This document shows, piece by piece, positions 652-20,920 of a DNA stretch of 32,000 bases. The position numbers and the translations under genes are program-made. Below the pieces are notes generated by a model that did not search any database, was not told the origin of the DNA, and worked only from the letters and a program-made list of their open reading frames with translations. Position 1 is the first letter of the stretch, and each line of letters opens with the position of its first letter. This DNA is from Massilicoli timonensis (GTDB lineage: Bacteria; Bacillota_I; Bacilli_A; Erysipelotrichales; Erysipelotrichaceae), in the NCBI RefSeq assembly GCF_900199515.1, contig NZ_LT963434.1, positions 1,712,180 to 1,744,179 of the forward strand, written 5' to 3'.

Positions 652-1071
652 TTATTCTTCCTTTTCCCGGAATCCCCAAGCCTCAAAATCCGTATCGTCT
701 TCCTCCGGCTCCACCTCTTCCATAAAGGTGGAGTCAGGGGCCTCTGTCGAGGCGTTGAGCATATAGGGCGTGACCTGTACCGGCATCTCGTTCTTGAGCG
801 CCAGCACCTTGGGGGCTGCCTTGCCGCAAAACACCATGGCGGCGGCAAAGGCGAAATACTGCACACAGCTTGTAAGATAGAGATTCACAATGGCCAGTTC
901 ATTTCCCTGCACAGGAACGCCCTGCTCAAGCTGCCGGGAGATATTTTGGTGGCAGGCTACCAGGGAAACAAAAGCCGTAATCAGCAGCACCGCCGCAAGA
1001 ACATAAAATGCAACGGAAAGGATAGTCCCTTTTTTCGAGGGCTTTGTGATTGGATTGCTGTCCATCTCCAT
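652..1071 (-). CDS. Small membrane protein with acidic C-terminal tail, translationally coupled to the ABC ATPase
   Basis: 139 aa from the ATG at 1071 (TGATG overlap with the ATPase stop; AAGGAGGG 7 nt upstream). About 3 hydrophobic segments, then an acidic tail EEVEPEEDDTDFEAWGFREKEE. The ORF-track start at 1074 is a TTG. Confidence 0.6.
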   Translation of the reverse strand: MEMDSNPITKPSKKGTILSVAFYVLAAVLLITAFVSLVACHQNISRQLEQGVPVQGNELAIVNLYLTSCVQYFAFAAAMVFCGKAAPKVLALKNEMPVQVTPYMLNASTEAPDSTFMEEVEPEEDDTDFEAWGFREKEE

Positions 1072-1815: not shown

Positions 1816-3093
1816 TTATTCCATCTGCGACAAAATCTGCTTGGGCTTCAGCCGCATGGTGGAGATACTGGACACCAGCACCGCCGCCACCAGCAAAATG
1901 CCGCCCACGATAGCCACCAGCATGAAATGCTCCGGCGTGACGATGACATTCTCCGCCGCCTTACCGAACAGCGTACCCAGGGTGCCAGCCACTTGCTTGC
2001 TGGAGAGGTAGGCCAGCGGGAAGGCCACCACCGCAATCAGCAGGCTTTCCAGCACATACTGGAGAATGACCGCAGGCTTGGCGATACCCACCGCCAGCAA
2101 AATGCCTGTTTCCCGTTTCCGGCTGCGGATAGACATGGAGAGAATGAGAATTATCAAAACCATGCTCACAGCAGTAATGACAATAATCAGCGTCGTAACC
2201 AAAGCGGTTGTGTCAGAGAGAGAACTTGAAATGTTCTGATACACTTCATCATTGGCTGTAACAATAAAGTTGTTCCAGTTGATAGAAGAAATGCTCTGTA
2301 CTTCGTTTATCACGCTCTCTAACTGTGCTGCGTCAGTTACATAGAAATCTGCCTCTTGAATTTTGTTGCCATCACCATAATTTACACACATTGCCTCCAT
2401 CGCAGTTTTGCTACAAAAGGCATAGTTAGAAAAATCCCACATGGTAGACGCATCGTACATTGTGGCCTCATCGTTCTTGTCAGCCACCACTTCAAAAATC
2501 CCCACAATTTCCATATCCACTTCGGGATCATCGGTATAAGGGTCATTGATTCCAACAACTTTGCTGCCGACTTTCAATCCATTCTGTTCAGCACGTTCCC
2601 GGCTGATGATAAGGCCATTGGTCATATCCTCTGTGATATGGGACCCTTCAACCAATTCAAATCGTCCTGATACGAATAAATCGTTATACTCCGTATTGAT
2701 AGAGCCATAGGTATAAAAACTGTTGGTGTATCCCGTTGTAACCACGCTGTCGCCCGTTTCCTTGAAGTAATAAGGCATGGAAACAATCGAAGCATCATAT
2801 CCGGCAATCCCGTCTACTGAGGCAATCTCCTGAAGCATTTCATCTGAAATAAATTCCTGCGTACTATATGAACCGCCATTGCCGCTTGTCCAGCCTCCAG
2901 TAGATAGATTTCGTTCCACAGTAAAACTGGTTCCCGTCACACCCCGCAGTTCCTCAGCCTGCTCCTCCTGGGCGTCGGCAATCGCCAGCCCGGACAGCAC
3001 CAGGGTGGTAATAGCCAGGAGCAGGAAGAACACCAGTAGCGTCTTTTTCCACTTCCGTGCGCTGTATAAAATCGCTCGTATTCCTAAATTCAT
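1816..3093 (-). CDS. ABC transporter permease, FtsX/MacB type (paralog 1)
   Basis: 425 aa. N-terminal TM, large extracytoplasmic segment, C-terminal 3-TM FtsX-like bundle. AGGAGG SD. Confidence 0.9.
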   Translation of the reverse strand: MNLGIRAILYSARKWKKTLLVFFLLLAITTLVLSGLAIADAQEEQAEELRGVTGTSFTVERNLSTGGWTSGNGGSYSTQEFISDEMLQEIASVDGIAGYDASIVSMPYYFKETGDSVVTTGYTNSFYTYGSINTEYNDLFVSGRFELVEGSHITEDMTNGLIISRERAEQNGLKVGSKVVGINDPYTDDPEVDMEIVGIFEVVADKNDEATMYDASTMWDFSNYAFCSKTAMEAMCVNYGDGNKIQEADFYVTDAAQLESVINEVQSISSINWNNFIVTANDEVYQNISSSLSDTTALVTTLIIVITAVSMVLIILILSMSIRSRKRETGILLAVGIAKPAVILQYVLESLLIAVVAFPLAYLSSKQVAGTLGTLFGKAAENVIVTPEHFMLVAIVGGILLVAAVLVSSISTMRLKPKQILSQME

Positions 3094-3106: not shown

Positions 3107-4369
3107 TTACTCCATCTGCGCTAAGATTTGCTTGGGTTTCAACCGCATAGTCGAGATACTGGACACCAGCACTGCCGCCACCAGCAAAATGCCGCCCACG
3201 ATAGCTACCAGCATAAAGTGTTCCGGCGTGACGATGACATTCTCCGCCGCCTTGCCGAACAGCGTACCCAGTGTGCCAGCTACTTGCTTGCTGGAGAGGT
3301 AGGCCAGTGGGAATGCCACCACTGCGATCAGCAGGGTTTCCAGCACATACTGGAGAATCACCGCAGGCTTGGCGATACCCACCGCCAGTAAAATTCCGGT
3401 TTCCCGTTTCCGGCTGCGGATGGACATGGAGAGGATGAGAATTATCAAAACCATGCTCACAGCGGTAATGACAATGATGAGAGTGGTAATCAGAGTCCCG
3501 GTGTCGGAAAGGGCGCTGGAGATATTCTGATACACCTCGTCATTGGCGGTGATCTTGTAGTTGTTCCAGTTGATCGAGGAAATGCTCTGCACTTCCTGAA
3601 TCACATTCTCTAATTGGGCGGCGTCCGTGACATAGTAGTAGGCTTCGGAAATGCCCTCGCCATCTTCGCCCCAGCCCTTAATCAGGCCCTCGGCTGCGTC
3701 CATGCTGCAAAAAACATAGCTGGAATAGGCGTAATAGGACGCATCATCATACATATTCACTTGGTCGTTCTTATCCGCCACCACATCGAAGATACCCACA
3801 ATCTCCATATCCACTTCCGGGGTGTTATTCTCCGGGTAGTAAACGCCTGTCAAGGTGTCCCCAACCTTCAGCCCGTTCCACTCAGCTAGTTCCCGGCTGA
3901 TAATAATGCTATTGGTCATATCATCGGTGATGTGGGTGCCTTCCACCAGTTCAAACCGGCCCGACAGAAACAGCTCATGGTATTGGGAATTGTAGGAGCC
4001 GTAGTTGTAGAAGCTGTAATTCTCATGGGCCAGTTCCTCGCCCTTATCATTGAAGATACGGGGCAGGGTAATCAAAGTGGCGTCATACCCCGCAATGCCA
4101 TCCACTGCGGCAATCTGCTGGATCATGTCCTCGGACATAAATTCCTGTGTGCTGTAATTACCGTTCCAGCCGCCCGTAGAGATGTCTCGCTCCACCGTGA
4201 AGCTGGCCCCGGTGGTTCCCCGGACTTCCTCAGCCTGTTCTTCCTGTGCGTCAGCTATGGCAAGGCCGGACAGCACCAAAGTGGTAATGGCCAGGAGCAA
4301 ACAGAACACCAGCAGTGTCTTTTTCCACTTTCGTGCGCTATATAAAATCGCTCGTATTCCTAAATTCAT
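3107..4369 (-). CDS. ABC transporter permease, FtsX/MacB type (paralog 2)
   Basis: 420 aa. Same architecture as paralog 1. AGGAGG SD. Confidence 0.9.
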   Translation of the reverse strand: MNLGIRAILYSARKWKKTLLVFCLLLAITTLVLSGLAIADAQEEQAEEVRGTTGASFTVERDISTGGWNGNYSTQEFMSEDMIQQIAAVDGIAGYDATLITLPRIFNDKGEELAHENYSFYNYGSYNSQYHELFLSGRFELVEGTHITDDMTNSIIISRELAEWNGLKVGDTLTGVYYPENNTPEVDMEIVGIFDVVADKNDQVNMYDDASYYAYSSYVFCSMDAAEGLIKGWGEDGEGISEAYYYVTDAAQLENVIQEVQSISSINWNNYKITANDEVYQNISSALSDTGTLITTLIIVITAVSMVLIILILSMSIRSRKRETGILLAVGIAKPAVILQYVLETLLIAVVAFPLAYLSSKQVAGTLGTLFGKAAENVIVTPEHFMLVAIVGGILLVAAVLVSSISTMRLKPKQILAQME

Positions 4370-4384: not shown

Positions 4385-5722
4385 TTAACTCATTTGCGAC
4401 AAAATACTCTTGGGCTTCATCTTCATAATGGGATAGGCCGCCAGTGCGGTAGAAGCCACACACAGCACCATGCCGAAAGCCCACACCAGTGCGTAATCCT
4501 CGGCGGAAACAGCCACCTCGATCTCGGCAAGGTCCAAATCCTCGGTGGGTTCTTGGGCCGCTTCGCTTTCCCCGGTCAAGTCCACCGTTTCATAGGTTTC
4601 GCTTGTCACCTGAGAGAGCAAGCTGCTCCCGATCTGATGGGAAATGGCTGTGCTGGTGCCGAAGGAGATCACAAGGGCGATGGCCGCCACAAGAATCACT
4701 TCCAGCAGGTATTGCAGCAGTACCGAGCCTTTGGAAATGCCCATAGCCAGATAGACGCCGGTTTCATGGACTCGCCCACGGAGCCGCAGCGTCAAGAACA
4801 AGGCCAGCACCAGGAAACAAATCACCGATACCACCGCAATGGCGATAAAGACGATGTTCTGCAAGCCCTCCAAGGATTCCTTGGCGTTCTGATAGTCGTT
4901 GTCGTAGCGGGTCAGGGTGCAGCTCTCCCAATCCACGCCATCCAATTCCTGCACATCGGTCATAATGCGCTCCAGCTCGTCCGGGTCGTTCACATAGAAA
5001 TCCCCGTACTGGACATTGGTGGTTCCCTCCGTGCCGTAGAGCAGGAAAGAGGCGGTGGAGAGGTCGGTGAAAACGATGTTATCGTAAAGGTCATAGGACG
5101 GGGCCATGCCGATGGAATCCTGTTCTTCCGTATTGGTGAAGATCCCGGCCACCGTCACGGGGATGGTCTTATCTTTGTCCTCCACATTCCCCAGCAGCAT
5201 GGTGTCGCCCACAGACAAGCCGTTGCGCTGGGCGAATTTCTCATGGACCAGCACTTGGCTGCCGGTTTCGGTGGTGATGGGGTTGCCCTCCACCATCTCA
5301 AAGCCGCCATCGGTGAAATAGCTGTCCTCCTGGGAATTGGAGTTGGCCACCACCCGTCCGGCGTTCTCATAGCCCTCCGGCACCTGGGCAGCACCCTCGG
5401 TGTTGATCTCCAGAAGGTTCCCGTCTGCGTCAAAATAAGTAGCATAGGTGTAGGAGCGCAGGGTGTACCTGCCACTCAAGCCATCCATAGCAAGAATTTG
5501 GCTTACCGTATCCTCCGGGATGCCGTTTTCCAGCGTCTTGGCGTTGATGGTGAAATAGCCCAGCAGGGCTTTTTTGATATTGGCGTTGGCCGTTTCCGTA
5601 GCCGATTGGATGGAAAGGCAGGTCAGCATCAGCGTAGCCATGACCAGCAGAAACGCCAGCAGTGTGAGGGTCTTGCCCTTTTTGCGGACGGAATACAGGC
5701 AGGCTCGTTTGCACAGGTTCAT
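4385..5722 (-). CDS. ABC transporter permease, FtsX/MacB type (paralog 3, divergent, acidic loop insert)
   Basis: 445 aa. Same 1+3 TM architecture, with an extra acidic segment ESEAAQEPTEDLDLAEIE before the last TM. First gene of the operon. Confidence 0.9.
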   Translation of the reverse strand: MNLCKRACLYSVRKKGKTLTLLAFLLVMATLMLTCLSIQSATETANANIKKALLGYFTINAKTLENGIPEDTVSQILAMDGLSGRYTLRSYTYATYFDADGNLLEINTEGAAQVPEGYENAGRVVANSNSQEDSYFTDGGFEMVEGNPITTETGSQVLVHEKFAQRNGLSVGDTMLLGNVEDKDKTIPVTVAGIFTNTEEQDSIGMAPSYDLYDNIVFTDLSTASFLLYGTEGTTNVQYGDFYVNDPDELERIMTDVQELDGVDWESCTLTRYDNDYQNAKESLEGLQNIVFIAIAVVSVICFLVLALFLTLRLRGRVHETGVYLAMGISKGSVLLQYLLEVILVAAIALVISFGTSTAISHQIGSSLLSQVTSETYETVDLTGESEAAQEPTEDLDLAEIEVAVSAEDYALVWAFGMVLCVASTALAAYPIMKMKPKSILSQMS

Positions 5723-5766
5723 CTCACGGCCACCTCATTTCCTTGTCGTAAAACCAGTGGGTTCAC
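5719..5766 (-). CDS. Candidate 15-aa leader ORF (MNPLVLRQGNEVAVR) coupled by ATGA to permease 3
   Basis: GTG start 7 nt after a strong TAGGAGGT. Its TGA overlaps the permease ATG (ATGA). Too short to validate by composition. Confidence 0.25.
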   Translation of the reverse strand: MNPLVLRQGNEVAVR

Positions 5767-5843
5767 TTGTGTACCTCCTAACGTAGTTTTTCGCCGGGGC
5801 TTTTCCCGCTCCGGTGGTGTCCCCGTCTGCCGGGAACACCCTT

Positions 5844-5898
5844 ATGGTACACTACGAAGGTGGAGTTGAGGTGGAGTGGAGATATTTTTTTGGTGGAG
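5844..5898 (-). promoter_or_regulatory. Putative response-regulator-dependent promoter of the triple-permease ABC operon
   Basis: Minus strand reads CTCCACC (5898-5892), CTCCACC (5876-5870), CTCCACC (5865-5859), with start-to-start spacings of 22 and 11 bp, then 9 nt, then TACCAT (5849-5844). The same box pair and spacing recur at 12056-12088. Confidence 0.55.
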
Positions 5899-5913
5899 CT
5901 GGCGATAAGGTGT

Positions 5914-5949
5914 AAAAAATCGGCGGCCTTGATTGGTTCAAAGCCGCCG
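5914..5949 (-). terminator. Rho-independent terminator after the BlaI/BlaR1-ABC module
   Basis: Hairpin cggcggccttga...tcaaagccgccg (5921-5949), followed on the minus strand by aTTTTTT (5920-5914). Confidence 0.6.
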
Positions 5950-6045
5950 TATAGTCAAACGTAGGACGTGACGATTACCTGCTGAGCAACGGCTTTTTTC
6001 TTTTGCCGTCTGGCGGGGCAGATTAAAGCGATATTCGTTTTTTTA
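5921..6045 (-). repeat. Structured repeat of about 125 bp, copy A (partner at 13059-13190)
   Basis: Block 1 cggcggccttgat..tcaaa.ccgccg. Block 2 tacctgc..gcaacgg(c)ttttttcttt..ccgt.t.gcggggcag.at. Then attcgtttt abutting the stop codon of the upstream gene. Both blocks fold as hairpins, with compensatory changes between copies (acggc/gccgt versus aacgg/ccgtt). Confidence 0.6.
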
Positions 6046-6049
6046 CATC

Positions 6050-6685
6050 TCAATCAACTCTTTTGCATTTCCAGTAAATGGTACACCATAAAAATAGACC
6101 TGCCAAAGTAATAATTCCTTTGTTCCATAGCCAAATATTATTTTGATCTCCGGCAAATCGGATAAACAAATAGACATATTCTAACCCCGGAAATCTTAAT
6201 AGGCTTCGCGTCAATAAGATTATCAGCCATATAACCCCACAGACTAATGTTGCTATATGTTCTTGCCTACATATAATCCCTAACAAGGCACACAGCGATG
6301 ATAAAAAGAATGTTGGTGGGAAATACAGCACAATCAATTCCCATATTGGCATTTCGTATCGCATAACTGACGCGCCTGCCATGCTAAAAACCGCGAATAA
6401 ACTGGATATTGCAAAAGCGATTATATAACGTAACAATACCCATTTGAAAAGAGATTTGCTTTGTGCGGCAATAATATCAAAATTACTGTCTGCTCTCGTC
6501 TTTCCCCATTCACCAACAACGATTGTGACAAAAAACGGGAATACCACTTCAAAGCTGACCGGATAAAAATCAAGCAGATTTCCGGCTATGATAGAAAGAA
6601 CAATCATAGCAACCGTAAAGGCCGCTGATACGATAAAGAAATTTATCCCGAAAATTTTTACTTCGCTTTCAATTCGCGCTTTCAT
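6050..6685 (-). CDS. Polytopic membrane protein, probable permease subunit of the adjacent ABC system
   Basis: About 6 hydrophobic segments. The likely start is the ATG at 6685 (MKARIES), 5 nt after GGAGG. The ORF-track start at 6697 is a TTG lying inside the SD. Confidence 0.7.
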   Translation of the reverse strand: MKARIESEVKIFGINFFIVSAAFTVAMIVLSIIAGNLLDFYPVSFEVVFPFFVTIVVGEWGKTRADSNFDIIAAQSKSLFKWVLLRYIIAFAISSLFAVFSMAGASVMRYEMPIWELIVLYFPPTFFLSSLCALLGIICRQEHIATLVCGVIWLIILLTRSLLRFPGLEYVYLFIRFAGDQNNIWLWNKGIITLAGLFLWCTIYWKCKRVD

Positions 6686-6780
6686 TCTGACCTCCAAAAC
6701 TTGTGTTTCAAAAACAGCAGGCTGCCAAACACAAGACCGCTTCCTACAAGGAAAAATCCATTTGCAATAACGCTCCCCAT
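6682..6780 (-). CDS. Candidate 32-aa single-TM micro-protein (MGSVIANGFFLVGSGLVFGSLLFLKHKFWRSE)
   Basis: Fills the gap between the two permease genes. Hydrophobic core plus a basic tail. Its stop overlaps the next start as ATGA. No clear SD. Confidence 0.25.
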   Translation of the reverse strand: MGSVIANGFFLVGSGLVFGSLLFLKHKFWRSE

Positions 6781-6807
6781 ATCAACAAACGGCCATCTCG
6801 GATGCAC

Positions 6808-7443
6808 TCATATCAAACGGACTAAATCGCCGGAAGTAATCAAGTAAAATGGCATTGCCTCTGCCGAGCCTACATAGGTGGCATTAAACCCAAACAATAT
6901 TGCGGCCAGAATATAGAATAAGCGAATGTCAATCATCCCCGGTAAGGCAATCGAGCAAAAGCTGACAAATAAACTCGTTGGAACTAAAGAAACAAAGATT
7001 GCTTTTATCAACGGGGCAATACATTCAATCAGGGAAATTTCAAATGGCGCAGCAATAAAATAAATTGTCGTGTTAAGTAAAAGAAAAATACACTGCATGG
7101 AGAAAACATATAGAAATCCGCCCAACAGCTTTCCCAACACATATTGCCATTTTCGTAAGGCCGATGACATCAGCAAAGATTTCATTCCTGTCTTAGTATC
7201 TATCGGAATACGTCCTGCCAATAAGAACATCAGACCGAACAATAAAACAAGGCTGTCGAGGCTCACAATCCGATAAACAAAGTATGCTGGCTCATTCAAA
7301 AACTCCAACCGAGCTAAATTCCCAGCAGAGGGGAAATTGTCAAGTAAAGAAAGTGCCGTCGCTACAAGAAGTACACCCCATGTAACCAGACGCTTGAACT
7401 GCATTTTATATTCATAATGGAGAACAGAAAACATTTTACGCAT
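6808..7443 (-). CDS. Polytopic membrane protein, probable ABC-2-like permease subunit
   Basis: About 6 hydrophobic segments. The likely start at 7443 (MRKMFSVLHYEYK) is preceded by GGGAGGG and overlaps the ATPase stop. Confidence 0.7.
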   Translation of the reverse strand: MRKMFSVLHYEYKMQFKRLVTWGVLLVATALSLLDNFPSAGNLARLEFLNEPAYFVYRIVSLDSLVLLFGLMFLLAGRIPIDTKTGMKSLLMSSALRKWQYVLGKLLGGFLYVFSMQCIFLLLNTTIYFIAAPFEISLIECIAPLIKAIFVSLVPTSLFVSFCSIALPGMIDIRLFYILAAILFGFNATYVGSAEAMPFYLITSGDLVRLI

Positions 7444-8314
7444 GGGCTTTCCCTCCCATACAATACACATAAGCATCTTCCAAAGTCGCCGTGACAGGTG
7501 TGGCCTGTAAGAAAAGCCCGCTTTCGTCCATTATTCGCGCAGTCAATCCGTGGCTCTCATATGTCGTCGATAATACTACCGATTTCTTTTGAAGCTCGAT
7601 AAGCTGGTTTTCATTTTCTAAATGTAGGATTTTTACCTTATCTTTTACCCGTTCCAATAAGGTGGCAGATGTGCCAGCATAAAATAGATGCCCTTTCCGC
7701 AGAACAGCAAGTTCTTCGCATAGCTGGTGAATATCTTCGACAATATGTGTAGAAAGCAAAACGGTGCGGCCCTCTCTTGCATATCTTGACAATAGGCCGC
7801 GGAACCTCACCCGTTCTTCTGGATCAAGACCGGCTGTCGGTTCGTCAACAACAAGAATTTGAGGATTGCCAATTAGCGCCTGCGCGATGCCAACCCTCCG
7901 TTTCATGCCGCCTGAAAGCTGACCTATTTTGCGTTTGGAAAATTCCAACATTTCAACCTGTTCCAACACATTGCTGACAGCTTTTTTGTTATGAATGCCT
8001 TTGAGTTCTGCCATGTAATTTACAAAGTCAAATACAGAAAGAGAGGGGTACATGGCAAGTTCCTGTGGCAAATATCCAACTCTTGCTCTGACCTCATTTC
8101 CCTGTTTCACGGTATCAAAACCGCAAATGCGGATTGTGCCTGCTGATGGGGTTAATACCGTAACCAATGCCTTCATCAGCGTAGTTTTTCCAGCACCATT
8201 GTGTCCCAACAGGCCAAAAACACCGCTGCCAACACGAAAGCTGACATCATCAAGGGCGGTAACGCCGTTCTTGTATTTTTTAGTAATGTGACTAATCTCA
8301 ATGTTTGTATTCAT
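7436..8314 (-). CDS. ABC transporter ATP-binding protein (ABC-2/DrrA-like subfamily)
   Basis: Walker A GHNGAGKTT, signature LSGGMKRRVGIAQA, Walker B LVVDEPTAGLDP, H-loop LSTH. The ATG at 8314 follows GGAGG. Confidence 0.9.
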   Translation of the reverse strand: MNTNIEISHITKKYKNGVTALDDVSFRVGSGVFGLLGHNGAGKTTLMKALVTVLTPSAGTIRICGFDTVKQGNEVRARVGYLPQELAMYPSLSVFDFVNYMAELKGIHNKKAVSNVLEQVEMLEFSKRKIGQLSGGMKRRVGIAQALIGNPQILVVDEPTAGLDPEERVRFRGLLSRYAREGRTVLLSTHIVEDIHQLCEELAVLRKGHLFYAGTSATLLERVKDKVKILHLENENQLIELQKKSVVLSTTYESHGLTARIMDESGLFLQATPVTATLEDAYVYCMGGKAHA

Positions 8315-8366
8315 ACGCTCCTCCATTTAACTACATTCGTAGATTTATAGGCTTTAATGATACGGG

Positions 8367-9332
8367 TTACTCATTGTAACCCGCACCATATTCTGTACCA
8401 GTATTATAGGCCGGATAAGGATAGAAATGTTCTCTGCTAAATTGTACGGAAAAAGCAACCGTAAGTATCAGAGAAACAGCCAGAATAGCCGTTATCATCC
8501 TGTCCCTGATCTTTGATGATTTTGTGGTGATCCGTTTGATTCTACGTTTTGTCAACACAAAACTGAGTGCGCCAATCCCTTTACCGGGTTTTGTAGCTTG
8601 AACCGTAGACAGTTCCAGCAGTCGGATAATAGCCGCAGCATATTCTGTTTCTGTGACTTTTCCCTGCGAAAATTTTAAGGCATTGCAATCGCAATCCGTT
8701 TCACAATGTAGTGAAAAATCTCCTTTAGCAATCCACGCAAAAGGGTTGAGCCAGTTTAATATGCAAACATAATCATAGATACGCTCCAAAAGAATATGTT
8801 TCCGCTTAATATGGGTCAACTCATGGATAAAGACAGCGGATAATTCGCCATCGGTCAGCTTTTCTATAACTGTTTTGCTCATGATAATTGCTGGGCGGAT
8901 TGCGCCGGTAACGCAAATGGGGTTATCCAAAGTCCCCCAATATAGTGCAGGCACTTTTTTTAAGCCGACAATTTCCGCACATTGTAAGCAAAGAGCATTT
9001 AGACGCTCAGTGCTACATATCTGGTATCCTTTCAATGCCCGCTTTGCCATTATAGAGCGTATCGTATCATAGACGAAAAGAATACCGCACCCACACACCC
9101 ATACCCAACAGGCAATATAAAATCCATTTAACCATTCCTGTGTTTCTGGTGATATGAGAAACACATCCGGTGAAAGGAATGGAACGCAAAAAAGGATCAT
9201 ACCGCAAAGCGGAAACCATAGCGGCAGCGTACAACGCAGAATGTGATTGATAAAAAGAGATAAAACACAAAATATACCGCCAATAGCAGATACAAAAATA
9301 ATCGCATTGAAAATGTTACCGAGTATCTGCAT
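8367..9332 (-). CDS. M56-family (BlaR1/MecR1-like) membrane metalloprotease lacking a penicillin-binding sensor domain
   Basis: HELTHIKRKH (HExxH) after an N-terminal TM bundle. Only 321 aa, with a final TM and a short tail. 17-nt overlap with the upstream BlaI-like gene. Confidence 0.85.
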   Translation of the reverse strand: MQILGNIFNAIIFVSAIGGIFCVLSLFINHILRCTLPLWFPLCGMILFCVPFLSPDVFLISPETQEWLNGFYIACWVWVCGCGILFVYDTIRSIMAKRALKGYQICSTERLNALCLQCAEIVGLKKVPALYWGTLDNPICVTGAIRPAIIMSKTVIEKLTDGELSAVFIHELTHIKRKHILLERIYDYVCILNWLNPFAWIAKGDFSLHCETDCDCNALKFSQGKVTETEYAAAIIRLLELSTVQATKPGKGIGALSFVLTKRRIKRITTKSSKIRDRMITAILAVSLILTVAFSVQFSREHFYPYPAYNTGTEYGAGYNE

Positions 9333-9705
9333 CTGTTTTCTCCTGCTGCTCGATCAAGCTCTTTAGCTCATGCAATTCATCAGACGAAAGATTGCCGTTT
9401 TTGACAAATCCCATTACCATCTTAGACAGGGAACCATCATATACGCGGCTTAGAAAACTGCGGCTTTCCGCAAGCTGGCATTCACTTTCTGATACTGCTG
9501 GATAATATAAGTATCCCTTTCCTTGACGTTTTGTAGTCAATGCTCCTTTTTTTACCAAACGGGCAAGGTATGTTTGAATAGTCGTCTTGCTCCAACCTGT
9601 TTCTTTTAACCTGTCTAATATTTCGGGAAGTGTTTGTGGAGAATTACTCCAAACAATCTTCATTACTCGCCACTCTGACTCTGAAATAGAAAGTTGCTGC
9701 TCCAT
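9316..9705 (-). CDS. BlaI/MecI/CopY-family winged-helix transcriptional repressor
   Basis: 129 aa. ISESEWRVMKIVW ... WSKTTIQTYLARLVKKGAL pattern. Gene pair with the M56 protease. Confidence 0.9.
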   Translation of the reverse strand: MEQQLSISESEWRVMKIVWSNSPQTLPEILDRLKETGWSKTTIQTYLARLVKKGALTTKRQGKGYLYYPAVSESECQLAESRSFLSRVYDGSLSKMVMGFVKNGNLSSDELHELKSLIEQQEKTDADTR

Positions 9706-9730
9706 AAAGCGCCTCCTTTGATTGATGCTG

Positions 9731-9772
9731 TGTAGTTTATTCTATTATAGCATTGGAACTACATAGTGTCAA
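9731..9772 (-). promoter_or_regulatory. Consensus sigma-A promoter of the BlaI operon with flanking TGTA/TACA inverted repeat
   Basis: Minus strand has TTGACA (9772-9767), 17 nt, then TGcTATAAT (-10 at 9749-9744). The 7-bp inverted repeat tgtagtt (9731-9737) / aactaca (9757-9763) brackets the -10. Confidence 0.6.
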
Positions 9773-10013: not shown

Positions 10014-11378
10014 TCACCACAAAAATGCTGTAAACTTCACACCGTTTTCCGTATTAACCATGTTATAGATAATTTCGTGGTGATCCAGGATGGTTTTAGT
10101 GATATACAGCCCCAGGCCGCTGCCGCCGCTGTTCCGGTTCCGGGATTTGTCCACCCGATAGAAGGGAGTGAAGATACGCTCCAAATCTTCCTCAGCAATG
10201 TGGACGCCGGTATTCTCCACGGAAAACACCTCGTCTTTTTGGGTGACAGTAATCACCGCCCCCACCGGCGAATAGGTCACGGCATTTCCGATCACATTGG
10301 TGAACACTTTCTCCATAAGCCGCCGGTCCCCCTGGTAGTGGTATTCCGGCTGGATGTCCATGCGAAGCTCGATCTGCTTATCCTCCATCCGGCCACGGAA
10401 CTGCTGGCAGACCTTTCGCAGCATTTGGCTGATGTCCAGGTCAGTGCGCTCCAGGTGGAAATCGCTGCCGCCCATCCGGGCCGCCGATAGAATCTCCTTT
10501 ACCAGCGCCTCCATGTCATTGGTGGTTTTCATACACCGGCGCAGGTAAGTATCGCGGTCTTTGTATTCGCCAACCTGATAGATCATGCCCTCCAGTTGCC
10601 CCTTGATGATGGCAATGGGAGTTTTCAGCTCATGAGAGACGGCGGTGAAAAATTCCACGCGCTGCTTTTCCTGCTCACGCTCCCGCTCAATATCTTTCTT
10701 CAACTGCCAGTTCGCTGACCGCAGGCTGGCCAGCGCATTGCTGAGCTGCTCCGCCATCTCATTCAGGCTGGTGGCCAGCACACCGATCTCGTCTTTTCGG
10801 TTGACTTCACACTTCCAGGTCATGTCCAGGGTGGTCATCCGCTTTGCCACGTTGCTGATATTGACCAGCGGCTTAGAGTAGTACCGGGAACAAACTACCG
10901 CCCCAATGACGGAGATCAATAGAATCACAACGGCAATAAAGGGGATGAGCTTCAACAGGATGTCATAGGACTGCGCCACCGCAACCAGGGCGGCATTGGC
11001 AAATACATGGTAGGTCTGCCCGCCTTGCTGGAATGTAGCGGAACAGCTCATAGAGGGGGCAGAAGTGTCCATGTTCTCCATATCGGCAAAATTCACGGAG
11101 AACAAATTATTCCCATAATCATCGTTGATTTCCACCGAGGCGTTGTTCGTCATGGAAAATTCCATCAGACTGTCCGAACTGGCCTCCCAGCCGTTTCGCT
11201 CCAAAACCGCCACCAAGTCATAAAAATCGGAAGTGACTTGGCCTTCCAGCTCCGTATGGTAATTCCTCGGCAGGAAAATCATCACCATGCCGTAAATGAT
11301 AATGCAGCAGACCACCAGCAGCGCCAGCATACTGAGGAAGGTTTTGGCCTGAATGCTTTGACTAATCTTCCTTCTCAA
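10014..11378 (-). CDS. Sensor histidine kinase with extracytoplasmic sensor domain, HAMP, HisKA and HATPase_c
   Basis: Two TMs flank about 110 aa. H-box FTAVSHELKTPIA, N-box NVIGNAVTYS, G-boxes ENTGVHI and GGSGLGLYI. TTG start overlaps the response regulator stop. Confidence 0.95.
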   Translation of the reverse strand: MRRKISQSIQAKTFLSMLALLVVCCIIIYGMVMIFLPRNYHTELEGQVTSDFYDLVAVLERNGWEASSDSLMEFSMTNNASVEINDDYGNNLFSVNFADMENMDTSAPSMSCSATFQQGGQTYHVFANAALVAVAQSYDILLKLIPFIAVVILLISVIGAVVCSRYYSKPLVNISNVAKRMTTLDMTWKCEVNRKDEIGVLATSLNEMAEQLSNALASLRSANWQLKKDIEREREQEKQRVEFFTAVSHELKTPIAIIKGQLEGMIYQVGEYKDRDTYLRRCMKTTNDMEALVKEILSAARMGGSDFHLERTDLDISQMLRKVCQQFRGRMEDKQIELRMDIQPEYHYQGDRRLMEKVFTNVIGNAVTYSPVGAVITVTQKDEVFSVENTGVHIAEEDLERIFTPFYRVDKSRNRNSGGSGLGLYITKTILDHHEIIYNMVNTENGVKFTAFLW

Positions 11379-12036
11379 TTTTATATCCCGCCCCTCTCAT
11401 GGTTTCTATGTAGTCCACACCCAGCTTTTTACGGATGTTCTTGATGTGGGTATTCACGATTTTTTCATCGCCAATATAGTCGTAGCCCCAAACCGTGTCC
11501 AGCAGCCTTTCCCTGGACACCACCCGGCCCTGGTTCTCCAGAAGGAGCTTCAAAATCTCAAATTCCCTGGTGGTCAGGGAAACGCTTTCTGTTCCAACAA
11601 GGACGGTAAGGCTGTCCGTGTCCACCGTGATTTCCTTATAGCGGATCACGGTATTGGGCGCAGCGCCGCCCTGTTCAGCCCGACGCAGCACCGCTTCGAT
11701 ATGCTTCATCACAACCGGCATGGAAAAGGGCTTGGTGATATAATCATCTGCCAGAGCGTCAAAGCCCTTCATCTGGCTATCCTCATCATCCAATGCGGTG
11801 AGCATGATGATGGGAACCCGGCTCTCCTTCCGCAGAATCTCACATACGGCAAAGCCATCAATTTTCGGGAGCATTAAATCCAGAAGCACCAGGTCGGGCT
11901 TGTTTACCCGGAACTGTTCAATTCCTTCCAGGCCATCAGCAGCCAGAACCACCGTATAGCCTGCGTCCTCCAGGAACGCCTTGATAATATTCTGAATGGA
12001 TTCTTCATCCTCTATAATCAAAATCATTTTTGACAT
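11362..12036 (-). CDS. OmpR/PhoB-family response regulator
   Basis: Receiver domain (LIIEDEE, LLDLMLP, KPF) plus a winged-helix output domain (LTTREFEILKLL...RGAGYKIE). The ATG at 12036 follows GGAGGTG. The ORF-track extension to 12069 would cover the promoter. Confidence 0.95.
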   Translation of the reverse strand: MSKMILIIEDEESIQNIIKAFLEDAGYTVVLAADGLEGIEQFRVNKPDLVLLDLMLPKIDGFAVCEILRKESRVPIIMLTALDDEDSQMKGFDALADDYITKPFSMPVVMKHIEAVLRRAEQGGAAPNTVIRYKEITVDTDSLTVLVGTESVSLTTREFEILKLLLENQGRVVSRERLLDTVWGYDYIGDEKIVNTHIKNIRKKLGVDYIETMRGAGYKIEKED

Positions 12037-12055: not shown

Positions 12056-12088
12056 AGTGTAACATACAAAGGTGGAGTTTAGGTGGAG
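12056..12088 (-). promoter_or_regulatory. Putative autoregulated promoter of the response regulator / histidine kinase operon
   Basis: Minus strand reads CTCCACC (12088-12082), 4 nt, CTCCACC (12077-12071), 9 nt, TACACT (12061-12056). Geometry is identical to 5844-5876. Confidence 0.55.
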
Positions 12089-12221: not shown

Positions 12222-12264
12222 GTCAAAAATGCCCCTCACCCAACAATATCCAGGCGAGGGGCAT
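12222..12264 (-). terminator. Rho-independent terminator after the sigma-like gene
   Basis: atgcccctc (12229-12237) / gaggggcat (12256-12264), followed on the minus strand by TTTTTG. Begins 6 nt after the stop codon. Confidence 0.6.
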
Positions 12265-12269
12265 TAGAT

Positions 12270-12722
12270 TTAACTCTCCAATAAGAGCTTCAACTTTTTG
12301 AGGACCTTCATTTTCCGAACGTGAACAGCATTACGAAACACGCCAAGCTCGTCTGCATATTGCCGTTCTGTCTTTTCCTCAAAGAACAGTGCCTGGATCA
12401 GCGCACGTTCCTCTGGAGTCAGCAGGGAAAGCGCGGTATGTAGCCTGTCCACTTCCAGCTTGTGAAGCACCACGCTCTCCACACTTTCCTGCTCATCGGA
12501 GAATTGCTGGGCATTTTCATCCACCAGCCGGTCCAAAGAATCTTCGCGGCTGGGGATGATCTGCACCACTTGGCCCTCCTTTCCGAGAACGAATCGCTCG
12601 GTTTTCAAATCGTTCTCAAAATAGCGCATTTTCCGGTCGCCCTGCATATAGGCCCGGTACACTTCATCCGTGACCTCGACAAATTGGCCGCGAATCCATA
12701 TTCTTTTTTTATTAGCGTCCAC
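12270..12722 (-). CDS. Sigma-70 region-4-type regulator (conjugative-transposon sigma-like protein; GTG start)
   Basis: C-terminal LTPEERALIQALFFEEKTERQYADELGVFRNAVHVRKMKVLKKL resembles a sigma-70 r4 HTH. GGAGGT lies 9 nt upstream of the GTG. Confidence 0.75.
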   Translation of the reverse strand: MDANKKRIWIRGQFVEVTDEVYRAYMQGDRKMRYFENDLKTERFVLGKEGQVVQIIPSREDSLDRLVDENAQQFSDEQESVESVVLHKLEVDRLHTALSLLTPEERALIQALFFEEKTERQYADELGVFRNAVHVRKMKVLKKLKLLLES

Positions 12723-13058: not shown

Positions 13059-13190
13059 CGGCGGCCTTGATGTTACTCAAAACCGCCGCAGTACCCTGAA
13101 AATCCATTATGGGCGCACAAAGCTACCTGCCCTGCAACGGTTTTTTCTTTCCCCGTTTAGCGGGGCAGGATAGCTTGTCTTATTCGTTTT
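13059..13190 (-). repeat. Structured repeat of about 125 bp, copy B (partner at 5921-6045)
   Basis: Same two conserved blocks and the terminal attcgtttt abutting the stop of the DtxR-like gene. Confidence 0.6.
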
Positions 13191-13638
13191 ATTCTTGCTC
13201 TTGTGCGGCTGCCTCTTTCAGCCGCGAAAAGCTCTCATCGCTGATAATGTGTTCAATCCGGCAAGCGTCGGCCTCCGCAGTCCTGGGGTCAACGCCTGCG
13301 GCGATAAGCTGCTCGGTAAAAAAGCAATGGCGCTCATAGATTTTTTCAGCAACCTCGCGGCCCACATCGGTCAGATGGAGAAAGTGATCTTCGTCCATTG
13401 TAAGAAAGCCGCCGTCCCGCAAGGTAGCCACTGCATGGCACACGCTGGGCTTTGACACCTCCATGTGCCGGGCCACATCTACGGAGCGCACCATACCGAG
13501 TTTCTTTTGGAGAACAAGGATGGTTTCCAGGTAGTCCTCCCCGGACGGAGTTATTACGGGCTTCATAAACTCTTTGCGCTCCTTTGCCTGTTTTTGTTGC
13601 AATTCTTCCCATGCTTCACGAATAATCAAAGAAAACAC
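13189..13638 (-). CDS. DtxR/MntR-family metal-dependent transcriptional regulator (no SH3-like C-terminal domain)
   Basis: TPSGEDYLETILVL..., wHTH SKPSVCHAVATL, metal-site segment YERH...TEQL...DACRIEH. The family alignment suggests the start is the ATG at 13566 (MKPVITPSGEDY); 13638 is a GTG. Confidence 0.85.
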   Translation of the reverse strand: MFSLIIREAWEELQQKQAKERKEFMKPVITPSGEDYLETILVLQKKLGMVRSVDVARHMEVSKPSVCHAVATLRDGGFLTMDEDHFLHLTDVGREVAEKIYERHCFFTEQLIAAGVDPRTAEADACRIEHIISDESFSRLKEAAAQEQE

Positions 13639-13691
13639 CTTGGCACGCCCCCTTTCAAGAATAATAGGTTCTGATGTTTATGCAAAAGAAA

Positions 13692-15422
13692 TCACTTTAG
13701 TTTCCAGCCACTTGCCAGTTCACGCTGTTTCCAAAAACGACTATAAATTCCATCTTGAGAAATCAGTTCTGCGTGTGTTCCTTTTTGCGCCACTTTGCCA
13801 TCCGATATAACGACAATCTGATTGGCATTTTTTACTGTTGATAAGCGATGTGCAATGGAAATCAGTGTTTTTCCCTTTGTAAGTTGTTCAATCGCTGCCA
13901 ACAGTTCATGTTCATTCTCCGGGTCAACGCTGGATGTTGCTTCATCCAGGATAATGATTGGAGCATCTTTCAAAATGGCTCTCGCTATGGAAACACGCTG
14001 CTTTTCACCGCCAGACAAAGTAGAGCCACCTTCACCCACCTTTGTGTTATATCCTTCGGGCAAAGATACGATAAAGTCATGGCATTGAGCCTTTTTTGCT
14101 GCCTCCACGATTTGCTCATGGCTTGCATCAGGATTGCCAAAGCGAATATTATTCTCAATGGTATCATTGAAAAGGTAGACGCTTTGAAAGACCATGCTGA
14201 TATATTGCATAAGGCTATCCGCAGTGTAATTTTTTACATCCTGCCCGTCCACAAGAGCCTGACCTTCTTGAACATCCCAAAAGCGGGCAATCAGGTTGCA
14301 AAGGGTTGTTTTACCCGATCCCGATGGCCCCACAATCGCGCAGGTGGTTCCCTGTGGGATAAGCAGAGAAACATGGTCGATAATTTTTCTGGACTTTTCA
14401 TATCCAAAAGATACATCCCGAAGCTCAATATCAAACCGTTTCGGGACAAGTTTATTTGATGTTGTGTCCATCTGCGGGATGTTCGTAACTTCTTCCAGGC
14501 GGTTTAAGCCAGCGGTGACGACACGGGAAAGAAACGCACCATTTCCCATCTGCTCCATTTCGGAAAAAATGATAAAGGCACTGACAATCACCATGAGGCA
14601 CCACGGCAACGATAAACTTCCCGCCAGATACAAAAGAACGGCGGCTAACATCAAAACACTGCCGGTTATCTTGTAAACAGCAGAGTACCATTTCATCAAA
14701 GCCATAGAAGCGTGTTCCTGTGCAAGATCAGCTTCTTTCTTTTTGCGAAAAGAGGCATAAACGGCATTTTCGCTACCATCCGCTTGGGAAAAGGCACGAA
14801 GCACCGCAATTCCCCGGATATATTCCAACGCCTGAGTCGTCATATCTTCTTGCGCCGCCAATACTTTCGGTGCGTGTTCCCTTGCAACTTGTCCAATAGC
14901 ATGAAGAATTAGGATGCCGACAAGGGAACCTGCAAGGGTGATTACTGCAAAAACAGGAACGGAAAATAGGAAGAATACGATCATTACCAGCGCCATCAAC
15001 GCTCCGCTGGTCAGATCAGTGACCGCCATCATGGAATATTGTTCCAACTCTGTTACTGTCGTTGTAAGTACATTCTGAATACTTCCCAAACGCTGCTCGG
15101 AAAAATATCCCATAGGTGCTTTTCGCATGAGGGCGCCAACATGAAGTCTGTAATCACGGAATATATCAAAGCCCTTAGCACTCATGGAAATATCCATAAG
15201 CCACTGAAAAAAGAAACGGCCCAACACACTGATACACAAGACAGCAAGAGCTTTCCAGATCACATCCATTGTCAGGCTGTCCAGATCAGAGGCAACAATA
15301 TAAACCGCCCATAAAACCATTGCCATACATACGCTTTTCAGGAAATTAAAGAGGATGCCCAGCAAGATTTTTGATTTATGCTTTCCCGCCAGATTGAGTA
15401 TTCTTTTAATCATAGCAATCAT
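13692..15422 (-). CDS. ABC exporter-fold half-transporter (TMD-NBD fusion), subunit B of a probable heterodimer
   Basis: 576 aa. 6-TM N-terminal domain. Walker A GPSGSGKTT, LSGGEKQRVSIARA, IIILDEATSSVD, H-loop IAHRLST. Confidence 0.95.
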   Translation of the reverse strand: MIAMIKRILNLAGKHKSKILLGILFNFLKSVCMAMVLWAVYIVASDLDSLTMDVIWKALAVLCISVLGRFFFQWLMDISMSAKGFDIFRDYRLHVGALMRKAPMGYFSEQRLGSIQNVLTTTVTELEQYSMMAVTDLTSGALMALVMIVFFLFSVPVFAVITLAGSLVGILILHAIGQVAREHAPKVLAAQEDMTTQALEYIRGIAVLRAFSQADGSENAVYASFRKKKEADLAQEHASMALMKWYSAVYKITGSVLMLAAVLLYLAGSLSLPWCLMVIVSAFIIFSEMEQMGNGAFLSRVVTAGLNRLEEVTNIPQMDTTSNKLVPKRFDIELRDVSFGYEKSRKIIDHVSLLIPQGTTCAIVGPSGSGKTTLCNLIARFWDVQEGQALVDGQDVKNYTADSLMQYISMVFQSVYLFNDTIENNIRFGNPDASHEQIVEAAKKAQCHDFIVSLPEGYNTKVGEGGSTLSGGEKQRVSIARAILKDAPIIILDEATSSVDPENEHELLAAIEQLTKGKTLISIAHRLSTVKNANQIVVISDGKVAQKGTHAELISQDGIYSRFWKQRELASGWKLK

Positions 15423-15425
15423 TGC

Positions 15426-17180
15426 CTATCCCTCCTTCTTTTCCAGATTTGATGCTCCGACATACTGCTGCCACATTCGATGATACAGTGGACACTGTTC
15501 CAGTAATTCTTTCTGTGTTCCTCTGGCAATAATATTTCCCTTATCAACGACAAGAATTTGCTCCGCATTTTGAATAGTGGAAAGCCTGTGGGCGACAACC
15601 ACAAGAGTTTTGCCGTGAACAAGACGCCCAACAGCCTCTTGGATTTGAGCCTCGCTTTCGGGATCAGCGTAGGCAGTTGCCTCGTCCAAAATGATAAGGT
15701 TTGACTGTTTCAGCATAGCCCTTGCAATCGTAATGCGCTGGCGTTCGCCCCCTGAAAGCCGATCTCCCGCGTCACCGGCAAAGGTATCATACCCTTGCGG
15801 CAATTTCATAATAAAGTCATGGCAGTTTGCGGCTTTGGCCGCAGCCTCTACTTCCTGATCAGACGCTTGTGGGTTTCCCATGCGAATATTCTCTCGAATA
15901 GACTTATTAAACAAAAAGTTGTCCTGCGCCACATAGCTGATTTCCTGCATCAACTGATCGAATGGAATGTCTTTTATGTCCTTTCCACCATAGCGAACGA
16001 TACCGGAAGTCGCATCCCAAAATCCAGCCATCAGCTTTGCAATCGTTGATTTGCCAGAGCCGGAAGCCCCAACGATAGCGGTCATAGTTCCTGGTTTTGT
16101 CTGGAAAGATATGCCATGAAGCACTTCTTTGGTATCGTTATAGGAAAATGAAACATTCTCAAAAGAATATGCACTTCCGTCAAATTCAACTTTCGCATCC
16201 GGGCGTTTTTGTTCTGGCGTTGCGAGGAAATCTTTGACGGGCTTCAGATTAGCGGTAATCGTTGTCAGCATTTCGCCGGCACTTGCCAGCTTCATCAAAG
16301 GCGCAATCGCACCAATGGGGATGATAATGCACGCAACAAGGATCGGAAGTGAAATCTGCTGGTTCATATAGAGGTATGCACCAATGGGCAGACTTCCCAG
16401 CATTGTCGATGGAAGAATTGCTTTTACCGCAGCCATCCAAAACCAGCATTGCCGCCACCAATCAAGCGTACTGTCATGGAAAAAGTTCACTGAATTAGAA
16501 AACTTACCAAAAGATGCTCCTGTACGGCCAAAGGCTTTTATGACCTGGATGCCTCCAACATATTCAACCAGCGCTGCGTTCATTTCGTTTCCGCTACGCA
16601 GATAGGTTTCCATTTTCTCACCATATCCGCGAAGCATCCCGAAAATGAAAGGGATGCAAAGAGGAATTGTAATGAGTGACGCCAATCCCATGCGCCAGTC
16701 CAACGCAAACAGCAAAACAATGCAGGCTGCCGGAGCTGCGATATTTGAAGGGATTTCGGGGATAAAATGCGCTATCGCATCTTCTAATTTTGCAACATTA
16801 TCTACGATGAGATTTTTATATACGCCGGATGGCGTTTCCAGCATGACACCCATTGGAACCTTTCGCATTTTTTCTGCAATCGCACACCGAATATTGCACA
16901 AAATGGTAAATGCAATCTTATGGCTGCGGCTGGATGCAACAATACCGAGCAGAGTTTTGAGAATGATACCTGCTGCGGCAATTCCGGCCCAAATCAGTGT
17001 ACTATGTATCGTTGCTGTACCTGCGAAAACTTCGTTGGCAAGCATGGCGGCGGTCAAATAGGGGAGCATACCAAATAACTCTGACAGAACTGTCAAAATT
17101 ACAGACAGCGGCATCTTTCCCTTGGCATCGCCGGAAAACTCAAAAAGAGTTTTTATTGGATTATCTTCTTTCTGCTTCAT
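15426..17180 (-). CDS. ABC exporter-fold half-transporter (TMD-NBD fusion), subunit A of a probable heterodimer
   Basis: 584 aa. Walker A GASGSGKST, LSGGERQRITIARA, LIILDEATAYAD, H-loop VAHRLST. ATGA overlap with the upstream EcfA gene. Confidence 0.95.
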   Translation of the reverse strand: MKQKEDNPIKTLFEFSGDAKGKMPLSVILTVLSELFGMLPYLTAAMLANEVFAGTATIHSTLIWAGIAAAGIILKTLLGIVASSRSHKIAFTILCNIRCAIAEKMRKVPMGVMLETPSGVYKNLIVDNVAKLEDAIAHFIPEIPSNIAAPAACIVLLFALDWRMGLASLITIPLCIPFIFGMLRGYGEKMETYLRSGNEMNAALVEYVGGIQVIKAFGRTGASFGKFSNSVNFFHDSTLDWWRQCWFWMAAVKAILPSTMLGSLPIGAYLYMNQQISLPILVACIIIPIGAIAPLMKLASAGEMLTTITANLKPVKDFLATPEQKRPDAKVEFDGSAYSFENVSFSYNDTKEVLHGISFQTKPGTMTAIVGASGSGKSTIAKLMAGFWDATSGIVRYGGKDIKDIPFDQLMQEISYVAQDNFLFNKSIRENIRMGNPQASDQEVEAAAKAANCHDFIMKLPQGYDTFAGDAGDRLSGGERQRITIARAMLKQSNLIILDEATAYADPESEAQIQEAVGRLVHGKTLVVVAHRLSTIQNAEQILVVDKGNIIARGTQKELLEQCPLYHRMWQQYVGASNLEKKEG

Positions 17181-18661: not shown

Positions 18662-18672
18662 CGTGCCCCTCC

Positions 18673-19988: not shown

Positions 19989-20005
19989 AAAATATCCTCC
20001 TTTGT

Positions 20006-20034
20006 TTGTTAGTTGCTGCTAACCTATTTGTCAA
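20006..20034 (-). promoter_or_regulatory. Putative promoter of the ECF/ABC operon containing a DtxR/IdeR iron-box-like sequence
   Basis: Minus strand has TTGACA (20034-20029), 17 nt, then TAACAA (20011-20006). ATAGGTTAGCAGCAACTAA (20027-20009) matches 14/19 positions of the recalled consensus TWAGGTWAGSCTWACCTWA. Confidence 0.35.
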
Positions 20035-20039
20035 AATGT

Positions 20040-20078
20040 AGCCGACGCTTTGAATATTCTCATATCAAACCATCGGCT
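20040..20078 (-). promoter_or_regulatory. Imperfect inverted repeat just upstream of the putative ECF promoter
   Basis: agccgacgctttga (20040-20053) / tcaaaccatcggct (20065-20078), 12 of 14 positions complementary, 11-bp spacer. The ccgatggt core is also present in the TetR-gene operator. Confidence 0.4.
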
Positions 20079-20123
20079 GTAAGATTGTGTGAAAGCGCCT
20101 ATACGCAGATCATTCGGGCGGCT

Positions 20124-20771: not shown

Positions 20772-20790
20772 AGGCTCACCTCCTTCTTGT

Positions 20791-20864: not shown

Positions 20865-20895
20865 TTTGGTTGTTAATGCTAACGGAAAATAATGT

Positions 20896-20920
20896 AACAG
20901 GCGGAAAAAATCCGCCTGTT
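20896..20920 (-). terminator. Terminator-like hairpin after the TnpV-like ORF
   Basis: aacaggcgga / tccgcctgtt 10-bp stem with a 5-nt loop. The minus-strand tail acattatttt is only moderately U-rich. Confidence 0.5.

Follow-up and report, generated by a model that had tools for sequence, protein, structure and literature searches.

Phased CTCCACC repeats as the predicted recognition site of an OmpR/PhoB-family response regulator at its own promoter and at the promoter of a linked ABC transporter operon

Introduction

Phased direct repeats of the heptamer CTCCACC precede two sets of genes in the window, the 32,000-nucleotide stretch of Massilicoli timonensis DNA analyzed here: those of a two-component system (TCS) and those of an ABC transporter operon. 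As judged from sequence, these repeats are probably the recognition site of the adjacent OmpR/PhoB-family response regulator (RR), which would activate its own genes as well as the ABC operon.

OmpR/PhoB-family regulators bind, as tandem dimers, direct repeats with a period of about 10-11 bp that replace the -35 element. In the case of PhoB, the pho box is made up of two 7-bp direct repeats with a 4-bp A-rich spacer (18 bp, 11-bp period), is located about 10 bp before the -10 element, and takes the place of the -35 element. PhoB acts as a head-to-tail winged-helix dimer; it activates transcription and autoregulates its own operon. PhoB-type direct repeats, positive autoregulation, and TCS-coupled export belong to textbook principles, and the conceptual novelty of the present case is limited. 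The site itself appears to be a previously undescribed member of this textbook class of regulatory sites. It offers a testable cis-regulatory code, CTCCACC-N4-CTCCACC placed 9 nt from the -10 element, for an uncharacterized TCS. Conjugative elements of gut Lachnospiraceae and Oscillospiraceae commonly carry this TCS, and the motif makes its regulon readable from genomes and metagenomes. An operon located about 4-6 kb from the sensor genes, behind an unrelated insert, would still belong to the sensor, which is useful for annotating mobile resistance or defense cargo.

Architecture of the Two Boxed Promoters

Both promoters are read on the minus strand. Upstream of the ABC operon, CTCCACC is found in direct reading at 5865-5859 (proximal box) and 5876-5870 (distal box of the pair), and once more at 5898-5892, 22 bp upstream of the next box, so that the starts are 22 and 11 bp apart. 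The interval that separates the far box from the pair holds a degenerate fourth slot, AAATATC (5881-5887), in 11-bp phase. The -10-like hexamer TACCAT (5849-5844) follows the proximal box after 9 nt (ttcgtagtg). An overlapping extra CTCCAC (5881-5876) was discarded as a feature: it results from a window-specific A-to-C change, and relatives have CTCAACTCCACC instead. Upstream of the RR gene, the distal box (12088-12082), which is kept in all RR orthologues examined, and the proximal box (12077-12071), 11 bp from it, are followed after 9 nt (tttgtatgt) by TACACT (12061-12056). The ribosome-binding site GGAGG (12049-12045) and the ATG (12036) come next.

In both promoters, an 18-bp unit of 7+4+7 bp, with an A-rich spacer and an 11-bp period, ends 9 nt before a TAnnnT hexamer and spans roughly positions -39 to -22. 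A consensus scan detected no sigma-70 -35/-10 pair at either promoter. Two 7-bp repeats about 10 bp before a -10 element and without a -35 element define a PhoB-type (class II) promoter, and this is the arrangement observed at both sites. The RR and ABC promoters have nothing in common except the boxes and the spacer to the -10 element.

The -10 element itself differs between the two promoter classes. RR promoters carry an invariant TGn (TGtTACACT, 12056-12064, in the window), whereas in target promoters the TG abuts the hexamer (TGTACCAT, TGTATTCT; window 5844-5851, minus strand), and the exact assignment of the target -10 is uncertain by 1 nt because TG abuts TAnnnT and does not form TGn. 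This systematic difference may set basal vs. induced expression.

Terminator-like hairpins are found on the minus strand upstream of each promoter. One is located 3' of a sigma-like gene and upstream of the RR promoter (12228-12265); the other, with a 12-bp stem and a T-run (5921-5949), lies 23 nt upstream of the distal-most ABC box. These terminators insulate both boxed promoters, which are the main entry points for transcription because they stand directly downstream of terminators. An Rfam scan of positions 5500-6300 gave no family near threshold, the best matches being a CRISPR repeat (E = 0.11) and SQ2397 (E = 0.47), both far under their gathering scores.

The bare heptamer is over-represented in the window: CTCCACC/GGTGGAG occurs 17 times vs. 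3.3 ± 1.9 expected from dinucleotide shuffles. Twelve of the 17 copies lie outside both promoters, mostly in coding sequence, and include an inverted pair at 709-715 (plus) and 727-733 (minus). None of the copies outside the promoters has a promoter context or scores in a scan with a position weight matrix (PWM), and the excess in the window is probably a codon or composition effect. In contrast, the shared 20-mer CTCCACCTNAACTCCACCTT has exactly two copies in the window, at the RR and ABC promoters, with 3 mismatches allowed; its expectation over 100 shuffles is 0.00, and no shuffle matched. Since the heptamer itself is over-represented, the case rests on the phased pair and its distance to the -10 element. 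The initial annotation had argued in this direction, placing the signal in the pairing and the fixed -10 distance, and the shuffles agree with it. Its coordinates for boxes, spacers, -10 elements, and ATG are all correct on minus-strand reading, and the isolated heptamers that it had reported in coding sequence near 727 and 1858 are indeed present at 727-733 and 1858-1864.

The Response Regulator and Its Kinase

The RR (224 aa; 11362-12036, minus strand) belongs to the OmpR/PhoB family, with the Pfam domains Response_reg (PF00072, 1.1e-28) and Trans_reg_C (PF00486, 4e-26). Its nearest solved structures are those of RegX3, RpaA, Mycobacterium tuberculosis PhoP, MtrA, and KdpE. The histidine kinase (HK; 10014-11378, minus strand) has two transmembrane (TM) helices around an extracytoplasmic loop of about 95 aa, followed by HAMP, HisKA, and HATPase_c domains. 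In NCBIfam, no model reaches its cut-off for the RR, the HK, or any transporter component. With 198.7 bits, the RR stays below the cut-off of the PhoB equivalog (296.2) and is thus not a PhoB orthologue. It scores 200.9 bits against VanR-B (cut-off 480) and the HK 170.8 against VanS-B (cut-off 920), which places the pair outside VanRS-B. The two proteins are generic OmpR/PhoB- and VanS/PhoR-like proteins.

The recognition helix of the window RR, NTHIKNIRKKLG, is invariant across box-bearing orthologues. More generally, all of these orthologues have the helix NTHIKNIR(K/R)KLG and the wing YIETIRGxGYKIEK without variation, and both differ in the boxless outgroups (L041-L045), which are 35-40% identical. 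The gene immediately upstream of the RR promoter (12270-12722, minus strand) encodes a sigma-70 region-4 protein.

Conservation of the Boxes in Related Loci

About 100 related loci were compared overall. A genome scan with the RR protein gave 49 loci, about 40 of which are orthologues with 64-99% identity (Lachnospiraceae, Oscillospiraceae, and relatives). Hosts of the element include Blautia schinkii DSM 10518 (L001) and Allofournierella massiliensis DSM 100451 (L004). RR promoters were sampled as the 110 nt that precede each RR start codon, independently of the motif. All RR orthologues (about 40 genome loci) carry CTCCACC-N4-CTCCAC(C/A/T) or a one-base variant of it, such as CTTCACC or CTCCATC, and the 11-bp box spacing and the 9-nt offset to the -10 element are unchanged among them. 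A MAFFT alignment of 21 non-redundant RR promoters has invariant columns at the boxes, at the ribosome-binding site, and at the TG and first T of TGnTAnnnT; beyond the boxes, the upstream sequences cannot be aligned. Copies of a single mobile element, not independent of one another, account for many of the closest loci, and it is about 20 divergent promoters that carry the argument. Boxes are absent from four outgroup regulators (35-40% identity; outgroups L041-L045).

The target promoters were searched for with a loose pattern and a PWM over 741 kb of relatives' DNA, on both strands. High PWM scores are found solely before RR orthologues and before the target operon, always in gene orientation; the motif is exclusively associated with this TCS clade. 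In divergent loci mapped with tblastn, the gene order is RR-HK, about 100 nt containing the boxes, FtsX genes (two to four copies), and ATPase, followed in L003, L006, L010, and L021 by a 140-aa protein. Target promoters are richer in architecture than RR promoters, a far box and a slot being added to the pair. In about 64 of the 69 unique target promoters, the pair is preceded at a distance of exactly 22 bp by a box-like heptamer (CTCCACC in 46, CTCCATC in 8, and more rarely CTTTATC, CTTCATC, or CTACATC), and TAnnnT is found at the 9-nt offset. The intervening slot is mostly degenerate (AAATATC or ATACTCC); it is a full box in L033-L038 and L109/L142, which gives three or four tandem boxes with 11-bp spacing. 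Modules are mosaic, with FtsX1 97% vs. RR 75% identical in L021, and FtsX1 81% vs. HK 44% identical in L033. Since the boxes are retained in these mosaics, any TCS of the clade could drive any such promoter, and the systems may thus be interchangeable.

The boxes stand before all 40 RR orthologues and, wherever the contig is long enough, before the linked operon, as expected of an autoregulated TCS. No regulator other than RR and HK accompanies the boxes in every one of the 40 orthologous loci. The initial annotation had linked one TCS to its own promoter and to the ABC operon through common repeats. This link is supported by conservation in orthologues, by the co-occurrence of RR and HK, by a recognition helix that covaries with the boxes, and by the lack of a -35 element at either promoter. 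Homologous elements have the box pair in promoters of both kinds, even where the RR is only 64% identical; its 9-nt offset never changes there, and the flanks are not conserved.

The ABC Operon and Its Leader

On the minus strand, the operon encodes three FtsX/MacB-type permeases, then an ABC ATPase, and finally a 140-aa protein. Permease 1 (445 aa; 4385-5722) has a Pfam FtsX domain, permease 2 (420 aa; 3107-4369) has FtsX and MacB_PCD domains, and permease 3 (425 aa; 1816-3093), also of FtsX type, is a tandem duplicate of permease 2. With ABC_tran in the ATPase (1071-1775), FtsX in the three permeases, and MacB_PCD in permease 2, the transporter is of the MacB/FtsX (type VII) class. Permeases 2 and 3 are 77% identical overall, and permease 1 is only 29% identical to them; a PDB sequence search with permease 1 gave no match. 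The N-terminal TM segment and the C-terminal FtsX region of permeases 2 and 3 are near-identical, whereas their extracytoplasmic domains have clearly diverged. This paralogue is present in one to three copies in relatives; the total of permease genes in L001 is four. The 140-aa protein (652-1074), which is also found 3' of the ATPase in L003, L006, L010, and L021, has no family above the Pfam cut-off.

The leader starts with a hairpin in computed folds, GGTGTTCCC-N7-GGGGACACC (5816-5840, minus strand), 3-4 nt past the ABC -10 element, and a second hairpin (5794-5814) lies directly 3' of it. The 5' arm of the first, (A/G)TGTTCCC, is kept across divergent FtsX-type leaders. Because the 3' arm and the loop length vary while pairing is preserved, this conservation suggests an RNA structure at the 5' end and not an operator. 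Further downstream, a 15-codon upstream open reading frame (uORF), MNPLVLRQGNEVAVR (5719-5766, minus strand), is preceded by a strong ribosome-binding site, AGGAGG (5779-5774), and its stop overlaps the permease ATG (ATGA). A uORF ending at or within a few nucleotides of the permease start is found in 39 of 53 unique FtsX-type leaders and is absent from others, for example L022 and L070. Its conserved "NEV" codons coincide with the ribosome-binding site of the permease. The uORF may provide translational coupling or attenuation.

The Insert Between Kinase and Operon

In the window, the HK gene and the target promoter are separated by inserted cargo (6050-9772, minus strand) in which the PWM scan found no box. 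It encodes a BlaI-like repressor (9316-9705), a BlaR1/M56 protein (8367-9332), an ABC ATPase (7436-8326), and two unknown proteins (6808-7476 and 6050-6697), all on the minus strand, and has a perfect consensus promoter of its own, TTGACA-17-TATAAT (9772-9744). The BlaI/BlaR1-ABC insert is not part of the box regulon. Within the clade that includes the window, the loci lose homology directly past the end of the HK gene (about 10011-9974) and regain it shortly ahead of the boxed promoter, at about 6010-5902. The interval after the kinase holds a different insert in each locus (window, L001, L003, L004, L006, L010, L020, L021), and the BlaI/BlaR1 module is common only to the window and L006. The gap of about 4-6 kb between TCS and operon is thus a secondary insertion, in view of this homology break and resumption with locus-specific inserts, of the position of the array about 100 nt past the HK gene in divergent loci, and of the insert's own promoter. 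Other modules seen in the kinase-array slot of relatives are further TCS/ABC sets.

The remainder of the window, 13189-32000, is mobile-element sequence. Besides a DtxR-like repressor (13189-13638), it holds two ABC half-transporter exporters and an ECF-type module (Trep_Strep, CbiQ, double ATPase) with a TetR regulator. Its conjugation genes encode a CHAP hydrolase, a sortase, a VirB4-like ATPase, PrgI, a TrbC-like pilin, and a VirD4 coupling protein. Because this type IV secretion set is present in the window, the region is considered cargo of a Clostridia-type conjugative element.

Proposed Mechanism and Alternative Readings

The boxes are taken as a positively acting RR site because their geometry is that of the pho box, without a -35 element. 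Each 7-bp box would accommodate one winged-helix domain, and the 18-bp unit a head-to-tail dimer of the phosphorylated RR, the signal presumably coming from the HK, whose extracytoplasmic loop has about 95 aa. Bound at -39 to -22, where a -35 element would lie, the dimer would recruit RNA polymerase as PhoB does at the pho box. At the RR promoter, one dimer together with the TGn extended -10 would allow some basal expression and positive autoregulation. At the ABC promoter, the four phased slots could accommodate two dimers, probably in a cooperative manner, and the three-permease operon would be switched on, possibly for protective export. Activator dependence is expected to be stronger there than at the RR promoter, because TG abuts the hexamer instead of forming TGn.

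The same RR might act in the opposite sense, as a repressor that blocks the -35 region, with negative autoregulation and repression of the ABC operon. The box site does overlap the -35 position, and an RR promoter with a perfect TGn extended -10 might need no activator. However, with no recognizable -35 element at either promoter and no canonical TGn at the target, there would be little basal activity to repress, and direct repeats in 11-bp phase, 9 nt from the -10 element and in uniform orientation, are those of PhoB-type class II activation. Moreover, TCS-controlled export operons are typically activated. Repression by the RR is thus considered unlikely.

It is still harder to believe that another nearby regulator binds the repeats, either the sigma-70 region-4 protein (12270-12722) or the DtxR-like repressor (13189-13638), with the TCS as a mere neighbor. 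The sigma-like gene is immediately upstream of the RR promoter, and AAC-containing motifs superficially resemble ECF -35 elements. Yet this gene is found only in the closest relatives (L003, L006, L030) and is separated from the RR promoter by a terminator, and the DtxR-like gene is found only in three genome loci (L003, L006, L008) and, among the metagenome loci listed, in L083. RR and HK, in contrast, accompany the boxes in all 40 orthologous loci, and the RR recognition helix tracks box presence. A reading of the sequence as an ECF-sigma promoter (AAC...CGTA) was rejected: divergent promoters do not keep the CGTA, and most loci lack the sigma gene.

Finally, chance, or shared ancestry of a duplicated promoter fragment without function, is the least credible explanation and is contradicted by the phylogenetic footprint. 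The heptamer is in excess (17 copies vs. 3.3 expected) and many loci are near-identical copies of one mobile element, but zero copies of the paired 20-mer are expected, orthologues with unalignable flanks keep the boxes at a fixed 11-bp spacing and 9 nt from the -10 element, the RR and ABC promoters are alike only in the boxes and the spacer to the -10 element, and the far box is exactly at -22 in about 64 of 69 unique target promoters.

Relationships With Known Systems

The predicted activator site resembles the pho box in its 7+4+7 bp geometry, its distance to the -10 element, and the missing -35 element. It differs in box sequence (CTGTCAT for PhoB vs. CTCCACC here) and in its regulator, which is not a PhoB orthologue. 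PhoB serves phosphate acquisition, whereas the operon found here is an export-type ABC operon on a mobile element.

The closest functional analogue is HssRS-HrtBA, the heme sensing and efflux system of Staphylococcus aureus and Bacillus anthracis, in which an OmpR-type TCS activates an adjacent operon encoding a MacB-like (FtsX) permease and an ATPase (PMC11237747). The S. aureus hssRS promoter is not signal-induced (PMC11237747), whereas the TCS promoter described here has the same boxes as the target. Both systems have an OmpR-type RR and a two-TM HisKA kinase, with an external domain of about 100-130 aa in HssS and about 95 aa here. In the hrtAB promoter, HssR likewise recognizes a direct repeat. 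HrtBA has a single permease, whereas the present system has two to four permease genes of two paralogue types. No Hss/Hrt model is among the best 25 NCBIfam matches of each component, none of which passes its cut-off, and the library may hold no such models.

Bce-type modules (BceRS-BceAB, GraRS-VraFG, NsrRK-NsrFP) are sense-and-protect systems of Firmicutes in which a TCS is associated with an FtsX-domain ABC transporter and the RR activates the transporter operon (PMC11009047, PMC9169098). The genetic coupling of a TCS to an FtsX-domain ABC transporter is the same here. However, BceB has about 650 aa and 10 TM helices, as compared with MacB-type permeases of 420-445 aa with one FtsX domain, and Bce-type kinases are intramembrane kinases with almost no extracellular loop, as compared with a loop of about 95 aa and a HAMP domain. 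Permease size and topology as well as kinase architecture thus set the system apart from Bce-type modules. BceR-type sites are inverted repeats, unlike the CTCCACC direct repeats.

Named NCBIfam models that score best against the RR and HK include VanR-B and VanS-B of the VanB-type VanRS (Tn1549-like), and VanRS-B is likewise cargo of a Clostridia-type conjugative element, represented here by the type IV secretion genes. VanR activates its own and target promoters, with more binding sites at the target. The scores are far below the cut-offs, and the output here is an ABC transporter, with no van resistance genes. A literature search on VanRB binding sites gave nothing usable. Literature searches turned up neither the CTCCACC motif nor the TCS-FtsX module, the motif text giving only primers or unrelated text. 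A search on such elements in Lachnospiraceae led to the lanFEG "LRS" system, a different one of ABC-2 type that is said to be constitutive (PMC10793476).

The more interesting leads are peripheral to the boxes: the variable cargo slot, re-use of the array, diversifying permease paralogues, and the leader hairpin with its uORF. It can tentatively be imagined, though this is rather doubtful, that the array is a portable, clade-specific "plug-in" promoter of a mobile TCS, that the kinase-array interval acts as a cargo slot in which unrelated modules are captured again and again, and that the array is re-used for different outputs, to which the leader hairpin and uORF could add translational control, for example by peptide- or drug-dependent ribosome stalling.

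The Box Pair in Metagenomes and Other Outputs of the Array

Public metagenome contigs were scanned for the box pair alone, CTCCACCNNAACTCCACNTT, which gave at least 136 matches in at least 119 loci; each match was oriented and its downstream DNA compared with the window proteins. Since the loci were retrieved by the motif, box conservation is circular in this set; only gene context, far box, and distance to the -10 element are free of this bias. Among the matches listed, 43 precede RR orthologues and 44 precede FtsX operons. A further 7 of those listed are too short to classify, and about 11 have the full promoter architecture with other downstream genes, some of them next to an orthologous TCS, as in L127 and the L084/L124/L156 group. 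The remaining class, about 30 of the matches listed, lies within coding sequence of unrelated environmental contigs; these are chance matches, as expected for 17 specified bases. A scan of viral contigs for the box pair gave three matches, all unrelated and without homologues of window proteins.

Outputs behind the array differ. Besides FtsX sets with two to four diversifying paralogues, they include solute-binding lipoproteins and an ABC-2 ATPase that is accompanied by an M1-peptidase-like membrane protein. Loci with the latter two kinds of output are L013, L015, L017, and L025, as well as L056, L109, L127, L141, L142, and L161. In L013, L015, L017, and L025, the array precedes an ABC-2-type ATPase and an M1-peptidase-like membrane protein of about 730 aa with the metallopeptidase motif HELVHQWWG. 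The solute-binding lipoproteins, of about 460 aa, stand behind arrays of four or more phased boxes, and L127 has up to about eight degenerate repeats. In L127, an RR and HK that are 71% and 65% identical to those of the window lie directly upstream of the boxed lipoprotein gene.

In L053, L084, L124, and L156, a complete target-type promoter (far box, filler, pair, and -10 element) is followed by serine-recombinase genes, without permeases. Three of these loci (L084, L124, L156) have an orthologous RR-HK pair upstream of the boxed promoter and the recombinase genes. Such an arrangement looks like a mobile element inserted between promoter and operon, or like an element junction.
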